A stretch of 64,000 bases of DNA from an uncultured Ignavibacteriales bacterium (GTDB lineage: Bacteria > Zixibacteria > MSB-5A5 > GN15 > JAAZOE01), in assembly GCA_964611355.1 (NCBI GenBank), contig CAZSYD010000007.1, positions 1 through 64,000 of the forward strand. Direction: 5' to 3'. This document shows, piece by piece, positions 35,302 to 52,899 of the stretch. The position numbers and the translations under genes are program-made. The notes beneath the pieces were generated by a model. That model had not been told where the DNA came from. It did not search any database and saw only the letters and a program-made list of their open reading frames with translations. How positions within the stretch are numbered: position 1 is the stretch's first letter; each line of letters begins with the position of its first letter.

Positions 35302-36750
35302 TCACTCGGTATATTTAACATCAAGCGTTTTCGTTGCCCTGACTTCATCGAGTCGCCGCACCGGTGTGTTATGCGGGGCACCGGTAATCAATTCGAGATT
35401 CTCATCGATTTCACGATCAATTTGAATCATTACCCTGGCAAAGGCGTCAAGCGTATCCTTCGACTCCGTCTCGGTCGGCTCAATCATTATCGCTTCGCTG
35501 ACGTTCAGCGGGAAATATATCGTCGGGGCATGAAAGCCGAAATCGAGCAAGCGTTTGGCAATATCGACAACCCGGGCGCCACGCTTTTTCTGCCTGATGG
35601 CGGAGAGTACGAATTCATGCTGGCAGACAGTATCATGCGGCAAATAATAGTGCCCTTTTAGAAGAGTCATCAGGTAATTGGCATTGAGCACGGCGTTTTC
35701 TGAAACGCGGCGAAGCCCATGTGCGCCAAGATGACGAATATAGGCATAAGCTCTGACCATATTGGCAAAATTGCCGTAAAAGCTGTGCATCCGTCCGATA
35801 CTTTCCGGCCGATCCTCATCGAGATAATAACGACCGTCTTCCTTCTCCACGGTCGGTTTCGGCAGAAATGGCCCCAGTTCCCCTGTTACCGCCAGTGCGC
35901 CGCCTCCCGGCCCGCCCCCGCCGTGCGGCGTTGAAAAAGTCTTATGCAGATTGAAATGCACGATATCGTATCCCATCTCAGCCGGCCTGGCCTGCCCCAG
36001 CAAGGCATTGAGATTAGCGCCGTCCATATACAAAAGTCCACCGGCGGCATGAACAACTTCCGCTATCTGCTCAATCTCGGATTCAAAGAGACCAAGGGTG
36101 TTCGGATTGGTAATCATCATACCTGCGGTTTCTTCATCGACTACACGAGCCACTTCATCAGCCGAAAGAATGCCCTTTTCAGTCGACCTGACCTGGACAA
36201 CATCATAGCCGGCCATTATGACCGAAGCCGGGTTGGTACCGTGAGCCGAATCGGGAATAATGATATTCCTGCGAACCCTGCCACGTTTTTTCATGGCCGC
36301 CCGAATGATCAACAGCCCGATCAATTCGCAATGTGCACCGGCCACCGGTTGCAACGTGGCCCGGGCAAAACCGGTTATTTCCGCCAGCATCGCGCCGAGG
36401 TTATACATCAACTCCAGCGCACCCTGGCTGTTTTCATCGCCAACCAGCGGATGCAATTGTGAAAAACCGGGATATTCAGCCGCAACATCATTGACCCTGG
36501 GGTTGTACTTCATCGTACACGATCCCAGCGGATAAAACCCCTTATCAATGTGATGATTTCGCGTCGACAGTTCGATATAATGGCGCACCAGTTCCGGCTT
36601 GGATATTTCCGGCAGGTCAGCCATATCGGATCGAAGGAGATGACGAGGAATAAGTTTATCAACCTCGCCGTCGCCGGAGTACGTCTCAGGCAACGAAAAA
36701 CCCACTCTCCCCGGCCTGGATTTTTCGTAGATCAATATCTCGTCAGTCAT
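35302..36750 (-). CDS. gcvPB: Glycine dehydrogenase (decarboxylating) subunit 2
   Basis: YPLGSCTMKYNP, AHGTNPAS and HFNLHKTFSTPHGGGGPG (PLP lysine). Confidence 0.97.
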   Translation of the reverse strand: MTDEILIYEKSRPGRVGFSLPETYSGDGEVDKLIPRHLLRSDMADLPEISKPELVRHYIELSTRNHHIDKGFYPLGSCTMKYNPRVNDVAAEYPGFSQLHPLVGDENSQGALELMYNLGAMLAEITGFARATLQPVAGAHCELIGLLIIRAAMKKRGRVRRNIIIPDSAHGTNPASVIMAGYDVVQVRSTEKGILSADEVARVVDEETAGMMITNPNTLGLFESEIEQIAEVVHAAGGLLYMDGANLNALLGQARPAEMGYDIVHFNLHKTFSTPHGGGGPGGGALAVTGELGPFLPKPTVEKEDGRYYLDEDRPESIGRMHSFYGNFANMVRAYAYIRHLGAHGLRRVSENAVLNANYLMTLLKGHYYLPHDTVCQHEFVLSAIRQKKRGARVVDIAKRLLDFGFHAPTIYFPLNVSEAIMIEPTETESKDTLDAFARVMIQIDREIDENLELITGAPHNTPVRRLDEVRATKTLDVKYTE

Positions 36751-36756
36751 AACGGT

Positions 36757-37713
36757 TTAGTCGTTCTCCTCTTCTTCCGGAGGATTTTCAATCTCATCTA
36801 TCTTCTCTTTAACCCAACTGGTGTCGGGTGAATCGGGATGAGCCTCAAGGAATTTCCCGTATAGCCGCAATGCTTCCTCTTTTTCGCCCTTTTGATTATG
36901 AGCGTAGGCGATATACAATTCGGCGTCATTGGCCAGATCGGATTCAGGGTACAATTGCAGGAACTCTTTGAATCCGGCTATAGCTTCATCGTACTTTTCC
37001 GCCCGCCGCCTTGTATCAGCTATTTTGAACATAGCATTATCAGCAAGATCGGATTCGGGGTAGGTCTTAAGAAACCGATTGAAAATCTCTTCAGCGGCGC
37101 CATATTTTTTATCGCGGCTTTTCATCTTCCCCATTGAATACAATGCGCTGTCGGCATATCCGCGCCGGTTGGCGGGATCTTCCTGGAGAATCTTGCGATA
37201 ATAAGTTTCCGCGTCGGTGAATTTCTTCCGACCGACGTATTTTTCGGCTATCTTATAATACAGTTCGTGCGTGGCGGCGGTGTCGATTCGGCGGAGATAG
37301 TCGGCCAGAGTATTGCGATCGACCTGATAATCTCTTATTGTACTGACATATTCGGGGGCTTCGGCATATCCCCAGATGCGATCAATTTCGGCGCCGTCCG
37401 GCCCGGCAAAAACAATAGTCGGGTAACCGGCCACACCATACTTGTTGGCCAAAATCGTATCTTTCTCGGCATCAATTTTGACGAAAATCATCTCATCGGC
37501 CAGAGCAATTACTTCATCCTGTCGATACGTCACGGTATCGAGTTTCTTACACCAGCTTCACCAATCGACATAGAAAGTTATCAGGATATTCAGGTTTTTC
37601 TCGGCGGCAACCTTTAGCGCATTCTCATACGTATCGACAAACGGTATTTCCGCGGCCGTGACAGCCGCGGCTCCGAAGAGAAACAACAGAATCGCCAAAG
37701 TAGTCTTTTTCAT
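36757..37713 (-). CDS. Exported thioredoxin-fold selenoprotein (UxxC) with C-terminal TPR repeats, 318 aa, Sec at codon 52
   Basis: Frame continues from ATG 37713 (MKKTTLAILLFLFGAAAVTA signal) through ITFYVDW-TGA-SWCKKLD into the tracked ORF; TGA (37558-37560) sits at the first Cys of a WCxxC motif. Confidence 0.85.
37519..37557 (-). promoter_or_regulatory. Candidate bacterial SECIS hairpin
   Basis: TCGATAC-CGTGAC-GTATCGA (7 bp perfect stem, 37541-37522); loop starts 23 nt after the TGA and has G at its second position. Confidence 0.7.
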
Positions 37714-37722
37714 GTTATCTAC

Positions 37723-38124
37723 CTATTTATCGTTAATGTCAACGATTTTTGCTTTCTCCCATTCTTCCCCCAAAATCGATTGTGCTTCACTATCGGCATC
37801 GACAACAAAATCTTTCGGAACCATTAACGTATATGCCCCACCCGCAGGACGATAAGACAATACGCCAAATTGCCCGGTCTGGCCAAAATGCCCGGCTCGC
37901 GAATCAATGACGACCGGGATACCTTTGGCTCGCAAACCTTCCAGGACCATCTCCGCCAGTTGCTGAGACGTAAGGCGAGCTATCGGTATCCAATCCTTGT
38001 ACGGGGTTTCTTTGCCGTCTGGCTGGTCTTCATCAGGGAGCCGGTCAACCAGTTTCTCTCCACAGTCGGGACAAACCGCAATTCCTATTTTATACTCATA
38101 TTTGCACGATGGACAATAAGGCAT
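37723..38124 (-). CDS. Zn-ribbon + DUF2007 (putative signal-transducing) domain protein
   Basis: CPSC...CPDC followed by AEMVLEGLRAKGIPV...LMVP...A..IL. Confidence 0.75.
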   Translation of the reverse strand: MPYCPSCKYEYKIGIAVCPDCGEKLVDRLPDEDQPDGKETPYKDWIPIARLTSQQLAEMVLEGLRAKGIPVVIDSRAGHFGQTGQFGVLSYRPAGGAYTLMVPKDFVVDADSEAQSILGEEWEKAKIVDINDK

Positions 38125-38126
38125 GA

Positions 38127-38462
38127 TCATTCTTCTTCGTATTCATTCAAATCATCATCCGTCTGCTGACCACTACCGAGGAAAATCTTTACGATTTCAG
38201 AGGCTTCCTCTGCGCGTTCCGCGGGAACCATTATCTTGAATTTGTCCAGCTTGCCTGTCTTGAGAGATCGCAGTTGCATTCCCGCCGTTCCGAGAAATCC
38301 CGGTTTGGCATCAAGCACCGCAGGGATATCATATGATTTCAACCCATTGACGGCAAACTCGGCGATAGTTCGGCTTGCCTCTTCAGCGATAATTACCCAA
38401 TGAGACCGAACATTTGCCGGCGGCGTTTGCTCATTTTCATTATGGTCAGGCAGGTTCATCAA
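38127..38462 (-). CDS. DUF2007-like domain protein
   Basis: AEFAVNGLKSYDIPA...IMVPAERAEEASEIV pattern. Confidence 0.7.
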   Translation of the reverse strand: MMNLPDHNENEQTPPANVRSHWVIIAEEASRTIAEFAVNGLKSYDIPAVLDAKPGFLGTAGMQLRSLKTGKLDKFKIMVPAERAEEASEIVKIFLGSGQQTDDDLNEYEEE

Positions 38463-38486: not shown

Positions 38487-39857
38487 TTATTCAATGACGG
38501 CCGTCTCGGTCAGTTTCTCTCCCGCCGCCACGCGCGCAAGATAATCGGCCAACCGGTCGCAATCCTCGAAAGAAATCATTTCCGTAACCGCCAGCAGCAG
38601 GTGATGATCCAGAGCCGGGTAAAACCGTTCGAGATTGATCCCGGCCCCAATACCGACCCTGGACATTTCGGCGATTATCTGCGTCGACGGAATCGGCGTT
38701 TCAATCACAAATTCCTTGAAAAACGGTGCTTCCGACCAAACCGAAAAGCCTTCCAACCGGGTTATTTTCCCCGCCAGGTAATGCGCCCTTTCGGTTGAAA
38801 GCCGCGCTACCCGGGGAAGGCCCTTCTTACCCATAAGCGAAAGGTAAATAGTCGCACTGGCGGCGCATAAGGCCTCGTTGGTACAGATGTTTGAGGTCGC
38901 TTTATCGCGCCGGATATGCTGTTCACGGGTTTGCAGGGTCAGCACAAATCCGGTTTTGCCATCGACGTCAACGGTTCTGGCGACCAACCGCCCGGGAAGC
39001 CTGCGGACAAATTCCTTCCGGCAGGTGAAAAGACCCAGAAGCGGCCCGCCGAAATTGCGAGGAATACCCAGCGACTGACCTTCCCCCACGGCAATATCGG
39101 CGTTGTATTCGGCCGGTGTCTTCAGAATTCCGAGTGAGATCGGATCGACAACCATAATAAACAGACCGCCGGCGTCATGTATCGCCTTTTCCCCCTTGAC
39201 GGGTTCTTCGAGATACCCGAAGAAATTCGGCTGGGCCATTATCAGGCAGGCTGCCTTATCATCAACACAGCCGTTAAAAGCATCATAATCGGTTACACTT
39301 CCGTTCGCCGGAACCGTTACGATTTCCATCTCCCGCCCGGAAACCATTGCTTGCAGCACGTCCCGGTATAAGGGATTAACGGTCTCCGAAACGGCGATCT
39401 TACTGCGCCCGGTATGGCTGGCCGCCATAACGGCGGCCTCGGCCATGGCCGTGGCGCCGTCGTACATCGAGGCGTTACAAACATCCATGCCGGTTAACCG
39501 ACAGAGATGCGTCTGGAATTCGTAGGTGATCTGAAGCGTACCCTGAGCCACCTCCGCCTGATACGGCGTGTAGGCGGTGGCAAACTCCGGACGCATAACC
39601 AAACTTCGGATAACCGAGGGAACAAAATGATTATAGATACCGCCACCAAGAAATGACAGCCTGCCGATGTTATTCCTTTGCGACAGTTTTTCCAGATGCT
39701 TTATTAATTCCGGTTCCGAAAAAGGGCGCGGCAGTTCAAGCGGCTTTTTCAGACGGAGTTTCTCAGGGATTGGCATAAAAAGCTGGTTTATACCGGCAGC
39801 GCCGATTTTCTCCAGCATTTTCTTTTGATCATCCTCGCTGTTTGGAATATATGGCAT
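38487..39857 (-). CDS. gcvPA: Glycine dehydrogenase (decarboxylating) subunit 1
   Basis: MPYIP start, TAYTPYQAEVAQG, NASMYDG and REQHIRRDKATSNICTN motifs. Confidence 0.97.
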   Translation of the reverse strand: MPYIPNSEDDQKKMLEKIGAAGINQLFMPIPEKLRLKKPLELPRPFSEPELIKHLEKLSQRNNIGRLSFLGGGIYNHFVPSVIRSLVMRPEFATAYTPYQAEVAQGTLQITYEFQTHLCRLTGMDVCNASMYDGATAMAEAAVMAASHTGRSKIAVSETVNPLYRDVLQAMVSGREMEIVTVPANGSVTDYDAFNGCVDDKAACLIMAQPNFFGYLEEPVKGEKAIHDAGGLFIMVVDPISLGILKTPAEYNADIAVGEGQSLGIPRNFGGPLLGLFTCRKEFVRRLPGRLVARTVDVDGKTGFVLTLQTREQHIRRDKATSNICTNEALCAASATIYLSLMGKKGLPRVARLSTERAHYLAGKITRLEGFSVWSEAPFFKEFVIETPIPSTQIIAEMSRVGIGAGINLERFYPALDHHLLLAVTEMISFEDCDRLADYLARVAAGEKLTETAVIE

Positions 39858-39864
39858 CGTAAAA

Positions 39865-40245
39865 CTATTCCTCAATCAATTCCTTATATTGATCGGCTTT
39901 CAGCAGGCTATCCAGCTCCGACTTCTCAGACAGCTTTACCTTAATCATCCAGCCGTCGCCGTACGGATCGCGGTTAATTACGCCGGCATCTTCGTCGATC
40001 TTGCCGTTGACCTCGGATACCGTGCCGGTGATCGGAGAAAATAGCTCGGACACCGCCTTGACGGCTTCGATTGTCCCAAACGGTTCCATCTGTATGACCT
40101 GGGTCCCCGTTTCGGGAAGTTCTACAAAGACTATATCACCCAGCTCGCCCTGAGCGTAATCGGTAATACCGATCTCCGCGGTATCACCGTCGACGCGGAG
40201 CCATTCGTGCTCCTTGGTATAGAAAAGATCACTCGGTATATTCAA
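39865..40245 (-). CDS. gcvH: Glycine cleavage system H protein
   Basis: YTKEHEW, GITDYAQGELGD, EAVKA lipoyl lysine and DPYGDGW. Confidence 0.97.
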   Translation of the reverse strand: MNIPSDLFYTKEHEWLRVDGDTAEIGITDYAQGELGDIVFVELPETGTQVIQMEPFGTIEAVKAVSELFSPITGTVSEVNGKIDEDAGVINRDPYGDGWMIKVKLSEKSELDSLLKADQYKELIEE

Positions 40246-45739: not shown

Positions 45740-45839
45740 NNNNNNNNNNNNNNNNNNNNNNNNNNNNNNNNNNNNNNNNNNNNNNNNNNNNNNNNNNNNN
45801 NNNNNNNNNNNNNNNNNNNNNNNNNNNNNNNNNNNNNNN
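45740..45839. other. Assembly gap (100 N)
   Basis: Run of N. Confidence 1.
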
Positions 45840-48268: not shown

Positions 48269-48368
48269 NNNNNNNNNNNNNNNNNNNNNNNNNNNNNNNN
48301 NNNNNNNNNNNNNNNNNNNNNNNNNNNNNNNNNNNNNNNNNNNNNNNNNNNNNNNNNNNNNNNNNNNN
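48269..48368. other. Assembly gap (100 N)
   Basis: Run of N. Confidence 1.
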
Positions 48369-49363: not shown

Positions 49364-50398
49364 CTATTTTCCCGTTACTTTTTCAACAGCCGCCGCCGCC
49401 TTCCGGCAATCCTCCTCGTCAACGTCAAGATGAGTCACAAAGCGAACGCGGTTGGGGCCGAAAGGAACGCACAAGACGCCTTCTTCGGCCAGTTTTGAAA
49501 TAAACCGGTCAACCGACATCTTTTCGGGATCAATGTCAACGACGACAATGTTGGTTTGAACCGTTTCCATATCAACCGACAGGCCCGGCAGTTGATTCAG
49601 ACTCTTCGCCAGATTACGGGCGTTCATATGATCATAAGCCATCCGGGTGATGTTGTTTTCGAGAGCATATATCCCGGCCGCCGCAAGTATGCCGACCTGC
49701 CGCATTCCGCCGCCGAACATCTTTCGAGTTCGGCGGGCTTTTTCGATAAATTCCTTGTTTCCCAGAAGTAATGATCCGACCGGAGCCCCCAGGCCTTTTG
49801 AAAGACAAACCGACACCGAATCGAAATACGACGCATATTTATCAAGCGAAACGGAGGCGGCCACATGGGCATTCCAGATACGGGCACCGTCAAGGTGCAT
49901 CCAGAGCCCGTGCTTATCGGCCACACCCTTTATCTCCTCAATAATGTTAATCGGATATATCGTCCCGCCCGCCCGGTTATGGGTGTTTTCAATGGAGACA
50001 ATCCTGTTACGGGGGCTATGAATATTCTGCGGCCGTATATTTTTCTCAATAAGCTCAGCCGACAGAATACCTTTTTTGCCTTCGACGGGATGGACAAGCA
50101 GCCCGGAAATAGCCGCAGGCGCAGCCACCTCGTAGTTGATTATATGGCTGCCCGTCTCGCAGAGAATCTCGTCGCCTCTTTCCGAGGCCGTGTACAGAGC
50201 CACCTGGTTGCTCATGGTGCCGGAGGCCATAAACAGAGCCGCTTCCATGCCAAGCATTTCAGCGGCCATCAATTCGAGCTTTTTAACGGTGGGGTCATCA
50301 CCAAAGACGTCATCCCCTACCACGGCCTCGGCCATGGCCCGCCACATTCCCGGCGAAGGGCGGGTTACCGTATCGGAACGCAAGTCTATCGGTTTCAT
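49364..50398 (-). CDS. ltaE: Low-specificity L-threonine aldolase
   Basis: DLRSDTVT, SGTMSN, ENTHN, HLDGAR, CLSKGLGAPVGS and GGGMRQ motifs. Confidence 0.95.
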   Translation of the reverse strand: MKPIDLRSDTVTRPSPGMWRAMAEAVVGDDVFGDDPTVKKLELMAAEMLGMEAALFMASGTMSNQVALYTASERGDEILCETGSHIINYEVAAPAAISGLLVHPVEGKKGILSAELIEKNIRPQNIHSPRNRIVSIENTHNRAGGTIYPINIIEEIKGVADKHGLWMHLDGARIWNAHVAASVSLDKYASYFDSVSVCLSKGLGAPVGSLLLGNKEFIEKARRTRKMFGGGMRQVGILAAAGIYALENNITRMAYDHMNARNLAKSLNQLPGLSVDMETVQTNIVVVDIDPEKMSVDRFISKLAEEGVLCVPFGPNRVRFVTHLDVDEEDCRKAAAAVEKVTGK

Positions 50399-50446
50399 AA
50401 CAGCCTAAAATTTCCAGTCGAAAATCAGGTTAAAAAATAAAATGAA

Positions 50447-51097
50447 TCATGGCGACGAAAAGGCGCCAAACAGCGCCGCCTGTTCAAAACCCATAAAACG
50501 CATGACCACGAGCATTACCAGTCCGGATATCAACGGAACGGTCATATTATCATCGATTTTTCCGGAGAAGGCTTCTGTCAGAGCGGCGGCCACCGCGCCG
50601 ATAATACCCGCCAGTGTCGGCAAACCGGGGATCAAAAACGACACCAGCGTCACGGATACCAGGCAGGCGGTTGAACCCTCTATAGATTTTTTCCCGATCA
50701 GTTTATGTTTTCCATATAACCGGCCGACCAGAGCCGCCGCGGTGTCACCGATGACTATAAACACCATTGCTGCAACGGCGATCGTTTTCGGGAAAAGAAT
50801 TATGGTACACAGGGAAGTAACCAGTATATAACTCGCACCCATGAAGCCGCCTTTTATTTCATGTTCCCGAATAATGGGAATCAGCATCCATGACAGCCAC
50901 TTCCAGAGCGCCCATTGCCTAAAGCGGGAAATATCAATCAGAATCGAAACGGCCGCCGACATGGCGACCCAGAAGATAACGGCCGGAAATGAAAGAAAGA
51001 GATACCCGACGGGAATAATAAGGGCAAAAAGATGAATTCCCTTTCTGACCATTTCGGCAGGGACAGGAATTTGATTCCCGTTATCCATACGGGTCAA
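50447..51097 (-). CDS. CTP-dependent polyprenol/diacylglycerol kinase family (SEC59/DGK1/VTE5-like)
   Basis: RKGIH, GDTAAALVG, KKSIEGS and IDDNMTVP motifs. Confidence 0.85.
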   Translation of the reverse strand: MTRMDNGNQIPVPAEMVRKGIHLFALIIPVGYLFLSFPAVIFWVAMSAAVSILIDISRFRQWALWKWLSWMLIPIIREHEIKGGFMGASYILVTSLCTIILFPKTIAVAAMVFIVIGDTAAALVGRLYGKHKLIGKKSIEGSTACLVSVTLVSFLIPGLPTLAGIIGAVAAALTEAFSGKIDDNMTVPLISGLVMLVVMRFMGFEQAALFGAFSSP

Positions 51098-52899
51098 CGC
51101 CCTTGAAAAAACCTGGGCGGGGGCAGTTCCTTGCGATATAAATCGCCCAGTCGTTCCCAGTATATCTTTGGCGGTCCGCCCAGCCCGTCCTCAACGTACT
51201 CTTTTCGGATCTTTTCCTTATGTTCCTTAATCAATAGCGAATTGATTCCCGAGCGGGCTTTTTCAAGGGTGGTGGGAAATGCTTTCCGGATAACTTTTAT
51301 CAGGTGGTAGCCAAACTCCGTTTTAACCGGGGATGAAATTCTTCCAACCGGCGTGGACATGGCCGCTCGCCAGAACGGCTCCGGCATATCGTATTCGCCG
51401 ATATAGCCCAAATCCGCGGCGGCGCGCCTGATATCCGGATCGCCCGGATAATACTCGTCGGCGGTCTCCAGAAAATCCGCTCCGGACATAAGCACGTCGC
51501 GCATGTGTTCGGCGAGATTGGAATCTGCAAAGATTATATGCTGCACATAAACGGGCCTGTCCGAAATATATTCGTCAATATGCTCATCATAGTAGGTCTT
51601 GATTTCCTCGTCGGCAGGTTTATAGTCATCCTCAATAAGTCTTTTTCTCATGGTGGCAACGGAATATTTTTCGATTAATTCCGCAGCCCACTCTTCGACA
51701 TCTTCACTGTCATAAAACCCCAGTTTGCTGGAGGCTCGGAGCATGTGGAAATGGACGGCGATATTCGTGATGAGGTCCGCCTTCTCATCCACGTTAAGGG
51801 GACGGGAAAGACCTTTCATCCTCTTATAAGGGTAAACCTGTTCGGCATAATCCTGGTAATAAAGAGTGTCGTTGCCGAATTCTTTATCGTCGGGGTTCAC
51901 GTAAGCCATCGGAGTATAGAGATTATGAAGCGAATCATCCATCATAAGAGAGGCGGTATCGATTACTATGGTTCCTTCCTCGGCAACCGAATCCACAAAG
52001 GCCCGGCTGCGGTCCATTAACGCCTTATCTTTCAATTTCGCTTCCACCTGACCGTACACCGAATCAAGCGGTTGGTAATGTTCCGGGGAATAATCATCGA
52101 CTCGAACCACATGCCAACCATACATGGTTTTGATTATCCCCGAAATTTCTCCGATCGGAGTGTGTTCAACCGTGGAGTCAAAGGGATACACCATGCTTTC
52201 AAGCTGAAAGTACCCCAGGTCGCCGCCTTTTGCTTTCGTATTGGGGTCATGCGAATACATCATGGCCAGAGTATCGAACGACGCTCCTCTAAGTAACTGC
52301 CTGCGCAGATCGGCAATCATCTCATAAGCGATGGAGTCCACCTGTTCATCGGTTTTGCCGAGATATAATACCGAGTCTTCGTCTTTCAAAACATGACCGG
52401 CTATAACTATGTGATGAGCGCGATATTGGTCGGGGAGCTTGTATTCCTCTTTGGCGATCTCATATGAGGCTACCACGGTCGATTCCGGCACGGTCACGGA
52501 GTCATAAATGACGTCGATGTACATCTCCCGCAAAACTTTTCCACGGCGCCTTTGCAGATATTGGCGATAAAGATCAGGCTCGGTGGTCAAGTCAAAGTCC
52601 TTACTCTCTTCGCCCAGAAGGGAATCAAGGAGCATCTGATAGACGGCGTCCAGCGCAGCGGCAGAATCAATCGTCTTAATGGCCGCCGGAATTTGGTTGA
52701 GTTGAAACTGTTCGGCCATCATGTCCGAATCTATGATCAGAAACGGCGTTTCAGCGAAGACGAACTTCTTCGGTCCTTCGGTAGCAGCCGAGTCGGCGGC
52801 GGGCGCTTCGGCAACCGGAACAGTCTGCTTCCCACTCTGACAGCCGAACAAAACAACACCCAGGGAAATTACCAAGCCAAAAGTGATATACCTGTTCAT
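51094..52899 (-). CDS. Lipoprotein peptidyl-prolyl isomerase with two parvulin (rotamase) domains
   Basis: Lipobox LFGC; HHIVI...FDTLA..YS.D...GGDLGYF...YGWH and QHIIF...DLGY...KTEFGYHLIKV. Confidence 0.88.
   Translation of the reverse strand: MNRYITFGLVISLGVVLFGCQSGKQTVPVAEAPAADSAATEGPKKFVFAETPFLIIDSDMMAEQFQLNQIPAAIKTIDSAAALDAVYQMLLDSLLGEESKDFDLTTEPDLYRQYLQRRRGKVLREMYIDVIYDSVTVPESTVVASYEIAKEEYKLPDQYRAHHIVIAGHVLKDEDSVLYLGKTDEQVDSIAYEMIADLRRQLLRGASFDTLAMMYSHDPNTKAKGGDLGYFQLESMVYPFDSTVEHTPIGEISGIIKTMYGWHVVRVDDYSPEHYQPLDSVYGQVEAKLKDKALMDRSRAFVDSVAEEGTIVIDTASLMMDDSLHNLYTPMAYVNPDDKEFGNDTLYYQDYAEQVYPYKRMKGLSRPLNVDEKADLITNIAVHFHMLRASSKLGFYDSEDVEEWAAELIEKYSVATMRKRLIEDDYKPADEEIKTYYDEHIDEYISDRPVYVQHIIFADSNLAEHMRDVLMSGADFLETADEYYPGDPDIRRAAADLGYIGEYDMPEPFWRAAMSTPVGRISSPVKTEFGYHLIKVIRKAFPTTLEKARSGINSLLIKEHKEKIRKEYVEDGLGGPPKIYWERLGDLYRKELPPPRFFQGR

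Follow-up and report, generated by a model that had tools for sequence, protein, structure and literature searches.

Prokaryotic selenoproteomes have been reviewed as spanning 119 families and subfamilies (PMC13188914, 2026), and in the part of its Table 1 considered here the thioredoxin-fold proteins with a UxxC active site, U being selenocysteine (Sec), include Sec-thioredoxin (PF00085), a "thiol:disulfide interchange protein" (PF13098), and DsbG-like and DsbA-like proteins. Here we describe a further gene of this kind, Trx-TPR, located at 36757..37713 on the minus strand of a 64,000-nucleotide stretch (hereafter the window; positions 1 to 64,000 of contig CAZSYD010000007.1, assembly GCA_964611355.1) from an uncultured Ignavibacteriales bacterium that GTDB places in the phylum Zixibacteria. 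From comparison with its relatives we hold with high confidence that Trx-TPR encodes a genuine selenoprotein; the protein is predicted to be exported to the periplasm and to combine an oxidoreductase of the thioredoxin fold, with Sec52-Ser-Trp-Cys55 as its active site, with a tetratricopeptide repeat (TPR) domain at its C-terminal end. It shares with the UxxC proteins above the thioredoxin fold, a Sec in place of the N-terminal Cys of CxxC, a putative selenocysteine insertion sequence (SECIS) just downstream within the coding sequence, and the existence of Cys homologues; it differs from them in its signal peptide and in the fused TPR domain of ~175 residues.

The window protein has the defining features of the PF13098 UxxC "thiol:disulfide interchange protein", a label that holds at the level of the domain. 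No Trx-TPR entry appears in the part of Table 1 considered, the terms TPR and tetratricopeptide never occur in the main text of PMC13188914, and the main text of the deep-Sep paper holds neither a TPR nor a thioredoxin term. More broadly, our literature search, which was confined to main texts, returned no description of this Trx-TPR selenoprotein, none of the papers retrieved on selenocysteine in Zixibacteria is about this gene, and among the papers listed on CnoX, YbbN and chaperedoxins none mentions a selenoprotein. We regard the gene as representing a new family in an already familiar class, that of the UxxC selenoproteins with a thioredoxin fold, the listed families having been compared by description; it would be a well-supported addition to the prokaryotic selenoproteome, in the form of a mixed Sec/Cys family of one poorly known phylum.

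Trx-TPR is a single reading frame that runs on the minus strand from an ATG at 37711-37713 to a TAA at 36757-36759, comprising 318 codons plus the stop and broken by one internal TGA only, and its orthologues align over residues 1-318. No other start is possible, since three codons 5' of the ATG the frame is closed by a stop. The TGA, at 37558..37560, is codon 52 and occupies the place of the first Cys in the thioredoxin CxxC (...FYVDW-U-SWCKKLDTVTYR...), a column that is TGA in the Sec forms and TGT or TGC in the Cys forms of the gene. A plain listing of open reading frames (ORFs) breaks this frame into a 51-aa ORF and a 258-aa ORF (36757..37533, minus strand), and the latter, the part after the TGA, is what gene finders call from a GTG start (37531-37533) lying within the putative SECIS loop. 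A first-pass annotation of the window, made from its letters alone, had extended the 258-aa ORF through the TGA to the ATG ending at 37713, placed the TGA on the N-terminal redox Cys, described the hairpin discussed below, proposed a signal peptide and a thioredoxin fold, and expected standard annotation to truncate the gene; its coordinates proved exact and the other proposals were likewise supported.

The truncation is widespread in public data. Of the 53 database proteins closest to the query, 47 cover at most 82% of it, most close copies being ~258 aa long, whereas the remaining six are full-length and continuous and every one of them has Cys at the active site. The database protein P0002 is the 258-aa ORF itself, with the N-terminus MTYRQDEV; the three truncated entries inspected all begin past the TGA, and two of them (P0002 and P0022) open with M-T-Y-R, which indicates that they start at the GTG inside the SECIS loop. 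This N-terminus could serve as a signature for finding misannotated copies. Public entries are mostly N-terminally truncated and named "tetratricopeptide repeat protein", and their correction restores both the signal peptide and the redox active site. With respect to sequencing data, the TGA is covered by contigs of three runs, X1 (possibly the source), X3 and X12, with no difference listed; the X12 contig comes from a diverged strain and carries 10 differences in 112 nt, none of them in the TGA and none in the hairpin. The TGA is no assembly slip.

Orthologues of Trx-TPR were present in 256 of 285 Zixibacteria genomes at E <= 1e-25. Among the 150 matches listed phylum-wide, a hand count put an in-frame TGA in 69 and none in the other 81, and within the window's own family the orthologue had one TGA in 11 of 13 genomes and none in the other two. 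We then compared 60 Sec-form loci from many families (12 from the window's family, three from family f2, five from the phylum-wide listing and 40 picked for bearing a TGA), and the TGA was the first position of UxxC in all 60; in the Cys forms examined, the same codon was TGT or TGC in 23 of 23. Comparison shows that the UGA at codon 52 has been kept by selection, with Cys as its alternate in orthologues. At least seven switches between Sec and Cys were needed on a quick maximum-likelihood tree built from 60 of these rows (37 Sec and 23 Cys), in which Cys forms are nested among Sec forms; its sampling is skewed to Sec by selective fetching, and being unrooted it gives no direction of change.

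Loss of the Sec machinery was considered as a cause of the Cys forms and rejected, since 40 of 41 relatives proved to have selB, among them Cys-form genomes, G006, G013 and all 11 genomes of family f4, whose orthologues are without an in-frame TGA. Because selB is present also in Cys-form relatives, the choice between Sec and Cys is specific to the Trx-TPR gene. Beyond the phylum, Cys-form relatives with 27-40% identity were seen in records titled Ignavibacteria, Bacteroidota, Eisenbacteria, Calditrichaceae, Brachyspira and Armatimonadota (loci L105-L184); the contig scan that found them used a pattern requiring Cys and is silent on Sec forms outside the phylum.

The candidate SECIS lies inside the coding sequence at 37522..37541 on the minus strand, with arms at 37535-37541 and 37522-37528 and the loop CGUGAC at 37529-37534. 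This hairpin, UCGAUAC-CGUGAC-GUAUCGA, is a perfect 7 bp stem with G at loop position 2 and occurs once in the genome. It begins 16 nt 3' of the UGA and its loop consequently begins 23 nt 3' of it, the loop distance given in the first-pass annotation; this spacing and the size of the hairpin agree with the bacterial SECIS pattern. On its own the hairpin is weak evidence. It is the comparative data, namely the conserved TGA, frozen synonymous sites and covariation, that carry it far beyond chance.

Closer inspection of the 12 Sec forms of the window's family, whose pairwise amino acid identity is 44-82% (mean 55%), revealed 63 degenerate codons at which the amino acid is invariant, of which only seven are also invariant as codons. 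Six of these seven are the consecutive codons 58-63 (Leu-Asp-Thr-Val-Thr-Tyr) that form the hairpin, a pattern best read as a hairpin held constant as RNA, at the nucleotide level. The Cys form L029, which belongs to the same genus as one of the Sec forms, retains the hairpin intact and looks like a recent Sec-to-Cys convert with a relic hairpin. The Cys form L033 and all those of family f4 keep the peptide LDTVTY/F, with varying synonymous sites and the stem lost.

Other lineages carry different hairpin types at the homologous site: a (C)UGGACAC-GGUC-GUGUUCA(G) stem in 24 of 24 family-f3 Sec loci examined, a GAUGGAC-8 nt-GUUCAUC stem in family f2, and two more stem types elsewhere. Across 23 sequences of the f3/f2 type, 83% of cells pair as opposed to 26-47% with a slid partner, at pair 21-36 GC is seen in 18 sequences, CG in the other five and an unpaired state in none, and the covariation score of 0.224 (shuffled, 0.125) was reached by none of 500 shuffles. 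The mean energy of the 48-nt fold was -10.7 kcal/mol in Sec forms (n=40) versus -8.1 in Cys forms (n=23), with a one-sided p of 4e-4 that is overstated because the rows are related rather than independent. In five f3 loci (L072, L073, L096, L099 and L100), a compensatory change of the stem from G-C to C-G accompanies a change of the peptide from LDTVVF to FDTVVL relative to the other f3 loci. We read this Leu..Phe/Phe..Leu swap as RNA structure constraining protein sequence at the f3 stem. With several hairpin types, a relic hairpin and a stem/peptide swap at one site, the family offers a natural data set for SECIS evolution.

The genome of the window organism (2.57 Mb, 96% complete) contains selA (509 bits), selB (343 bits) and selD (374 bits), each above its cut-off, together with a tRNA-Sec (73 bits) that ARAGORN also reports as tRNA-SeC with anticodon TCA; by these matches, the bacterial Sec-insertion machinery is predicted to be complete. 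On contig 10, selA (49488-50822) adjoins selB (50846-52690) across a 24-nt gap, and the tRNA-Sec (36182-36273) lies ~13 kb upstream of the pair. The selD gene (L009; contig 13, 39628-40551) itself carries one in-frame TGA in the context C-A-G-U-A-A-K, so that selenophosphate synthetase would here be a selenoprotein as well. General recoding of TGA in this organism was also considered and rejected, because TGA is the ordinary stop of 21 of the 54 long ORFs of the window. The first-pass annotation had named a genome lacking selABC, absence of the TGA from all relatives and an unconserved hairpin as grounds for abandoning a selenoprotein; none of these was found, and among the checks that it had proposed, those of the Sec genes, of codon 52 in orthologues and of the TGA in sequencing data came out in its favor.

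Comparison among relatives thus demonstrates the marks expected of SelB/SECIS recoding at UGA 52, and Sec is very probably the residue at the active site. Following established bacterial Sec decoding, SelB.GTP.Sec-tRNA(Sec) would be bound to the hairpin when the ribosome arrives at the UGA, and would insert Sec, whereas termination there would yield a mere 51-residue fragment.

Several observations nevertheless weigh against a selenoprotein at this locus. Taken singly, the 76-nt fold is unremarkable (z = -0.46); across the window, the density of perfect 7-bp hairpins is 0.0011 per nt, and such a hairpin begins 8-30 nt 3' of 26 of the 2157 TGA triplets (1.2%). An Rfam scan of 37400-37720 at E <= 10 returned no SECIS family and four chance-level matches (snoRNA, CRISPR repeat, sRNA). 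The covariation is modest by pair count, as four pairs change on both sides, a number equalled in 53 of 500 shuffles. Bacterial SECIS loops typically carry a G, and the family-f2 hairpin loops, ACUAUAAC and ACAAUAAC, depart from this rule. Because Cys forms occur in genomes keeping selB, Sec would appear to be dispensable for function. Finally, the runs listed as covering the stretch are 24 DNA runs, from metagenomes of salt marsh, marine sediment and cold seep, and none of them is an RNA run.

These points must be set against what the competing explanations would have to accommodate. The existence of Cys forms might suggest a gene that normally has Cys and in which the TGA arose by nonsense mutation, pseudogene decay or an error of sequencing or assembly, yet the same TGA recurs in all 60 Sec-form orthologues and in independent run contigs, including that of the diverged strain, while the frame is intact on either side and the hairpin is under synonymous-site constraint; we give this explanation next to no chance. 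Gene callers read the TGA as a true stop, as it normally is elsewhere in the window, and the locus would then make a 51-aa exported peptide and a 258-aa TPR protein from the GTG at 37533. Such a product, however, would begin within helix 1 of the thioredoxin fold and be without the active site, strand 1 and signal peptide, although the whole frame is predicted to fold as one domain with pLDDT above 90 and the Cys forms are continuous; conservation of frame and hairpin across the TGA would also go unexplained, which makes a true stop extremely improbable. We also considered that the UGA is read through without Sec, for example by a near-cognate Trp or Cys tRNA, with the hairpin merely stimulating read-through. 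The lineage hairpins without a loop G are compatible with this, and Sec status here is drawn from sequence comparison, but the codon sits at the catalytic Cys position and alternates only with Cys, the genome has the full Sec machinery and nearly all relatives have selB, and the hairpin has SECIS-like spacing and size. Read-through of this sort is very unlikely in our view, and incorporation of Sec at codon 52 remains the preferred reading.

With respect to the protein, an AlphaFold model of the whole frame reached a mean pLDDT of 94.1 and a pTM of 0.86. Residues ~1-21 (37651..37713, minus strand) form a predicted signal peptide of the Sec (secretory) type, with MKK, a hydrophobic core and V-T-A-A; residues 1-20 have a low pLDDT of 53-61 and precede a folded domain that begins at about residue 24. 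When the N-termini of 57 orthologues were compared, 56 were hydrophobic, 52 had K or R within the first eight residues and 20 carried a lipobox-like motif. The thioredoxin-fold domain spans residues ~24-130 (37324..37644) and scores above the Pfam cut-offs for Thioredoxin PF00085 (50 bits versus 23.5), Thioredoxin_7 PF13899 and Thioredoxin_2 PF13098 (40.8 versus 27). The model places helix 53-60, which starts at UxxC, after strand 42-48, and the cis-Pro, Pro98, lies in the GYPT noted by the first-pass annotation, at residues 96-99; G96, P98 and T99 are invariant, as is the column of the resolving Cys55 (37549..37551) in a 42-sequence alignment. All forms carry an aromatic residue, W or Y, at the second x of UxxC. 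By its modelled fold, UxxC and cis-Pro loop, the protein qualifies as a thioredoxin-fold thiol-disulfide oxidoreductase. The TPR domain occupies residues ~136-310 (36784..37308; helices H136-H309), with the Pfam models TPR_6, TPR_14 and YfiO (43 bits) above their cut-offs. In an NCBIfam search of the protein, no model reached its cut-off.

The closest relatives of the thioredoxin domain, in both sequence and structure, are DsbD gamma and DsbH, all of them extracytoplasmic. Positions 457-572 (gamma) of the NCBIfam DsbD model NF001419 match at E 3e-14, profile matches to DsbD gamma chains in the PDB reach E 4e-16, and VIA-align gave Z scores of 15.2 for DsbH and 14.8 for DsbD gamma at an rmsd of ~2 A. 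At 52.5 bits, where the cut-off is 330, the protein is not a DsbD; unlike DsbD it has no alpha or beta domain, carries Sec for Cys and is fused to TPRs. The Trx7/PDZ selenoprotein NF041199 and TsoB (NF045694) resemble it as predicted selenoproteins that join a DsbD-like or Thioredoxin_7 domain to another module. The C-terminal DsbD-like domain of TsoB is the best NCBIfam match of the thioredoxin part (62.2 bits versus a cut-off of 805), and NF041199 gave no match at E <= 0.01 in the NCBIfam search; as given in the part of Table 1 of PMC13188914 considered, their combinations, CxxU with PDZ and UxxxxU with rhodanese, differ from the UxxC with TPR of the window protein.

CnoX/YbbN proteins have the same order of a thioredoxin domain followed by a TPR domain, and Foldseek returned YbbN/CnoX chains 3qou (E 1.3e-7) and 3qdn as the best whole-chain matches (E up to 9e-7, ~290 columns). 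The orientation of the two domains differs from that of the window protein, however (rmsd ~23 A, TM 0.26-0.29), and YbbN chains are absent among the best 60 profile matches to solved structures. In the portion of its literature considered, CnoX is described as a cytoplasmic protein that acts together with GroEL, whereas the window protein has a predicted signal peptide, with a lipobox in some orthologues. The likeness suggests that the protein may be an extracytoplasmic counterpart of the Trx-TPR chaperedoxin architecture, which may then exist outside the cytoplasm too. The first-pass annotation had called the TPRs BamD/CpoB-like, and the likeness stands, in that the TPR domain superposes on YbgF 2xev (Foldseek TMt 0.81, rmsd 2.3 A) and also matches BamD 3qky. 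Membership does not, because the domain stays below the NCBIfam cut-offs for both YbgF/CpoB (TIGR02795, 76.1 versus 90.1) and BamD (TIGR03302, 70.8 versus 81.4); YbgF/CpoB and BamD are, moreover, both without a redox domain.

As to function, we propose that after Sec-dependent (secretory) export the exposed Sec52 would attack disulfides or sulfenates of envelope proteins and Cys55 would resolve the mixed selenenylsulfide. The genome encodes, on contig 1 (84704-85348), a stand-alone 246-aa DsbD_TM/CcdA-like membrane protein, which could re-reduce the enzyme as DsbD beta re-reduces gamma, while the TPR domain may hold a client or partner protein. Taken as a whole, from Sec52 as nucleophile and resolution by Cys55 to CcdA-like re-reduction and holding by the TPRs, such a CcdA-fed envelope reductase has about even odds in our estimate. 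Its reductase direction, its CcdA donor and the binding of clients by its TPRs are all drawn from fold and genome content, and ordinary thioredoxins score Z ~14 in VIA-align, within ~1 of DsbH and DsbD gamma; both points count against it. The protein could instead be an envelope disulfide-forming oxidase or isomerase replacing DsbA, as the Pfam DSBA, DsbB and VKOR models have no match in the 96%-complete genome and an aromatic residue at that second x points to the DsbC/DsbG/DsbA type, of which it is typical, rather than to the CGPC of thioredoxin. No oxidant partner was found, however, anaerobes usually lack DsbAB, a Sec in the attacking position is a typical feature of reductive selenoproteins, and the nearest relatives in sequence and structure, DsbD gamma and DsbH, are reductases. 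An oxidase or isomerase is plausible but on balance unlikely, and we favor the CcdA-fed reductase as the working model.

Trx-TPR sits within a string of glycine cleavage genes on the minus strand. Upstream are gcvH (39865-40245; Pfam GCV_H, E 3e-45), gcvPA (38487-39875; Pfam GDC-P, E 5e-121) and two small zinc-ribbon/DUF2007-like ORFs of 135 and 111 aa (37723..38462), which have weak Pfam matches below cut-offs and are conserved upstream in relatives; the first of these ends 9 nt 5' of the selenoprotein ATG. Downstream, gcvPB (35302..36750; glycine dehydrogenase subunit 2, Pfam GcvP2_C and GDC-P) starts 6 nt past the selenoprotein stop. The order gcvPA - (small ORFs) - Trx-TPR - gcvPB was found in all related loci with ~1.5 kb of flank (L020-L062) except L048, where the gcvPB match is weak, and the same arrangement recurs in many Zixibacteria families, as a rule together with one or two of the small zinc-ribbon/DUF2007-like ORFs. 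A bolder and, in our judgment, improbable extension is a selenium-dependent chaperedoxin acting outside the cytoplasm, in which a Sec-thioredoxin tethered to a client-binding TPR domain would repair or hold oxidized envelope proteins of anaerobic bacteria living in sediment; the strict, phylum-wide position of its gene between gcvPA and gcvPB would then stem from a functional coupling to glycine metabolism rather than from operon hitch-hiking.

Elsewhere in the window, two runs of 100 N (45740-45839 and 48269-48368) may be scaffold gaps. Among the relatives, we also observed weaker thioredoxin-like/TPR matches with a single in-frame TGA at G011:C25:32197-32754, G034:C64:9829-10368, G038:C75:78424-78789 and G018:C10:27010-27387, and these may represent further selenoproteins.

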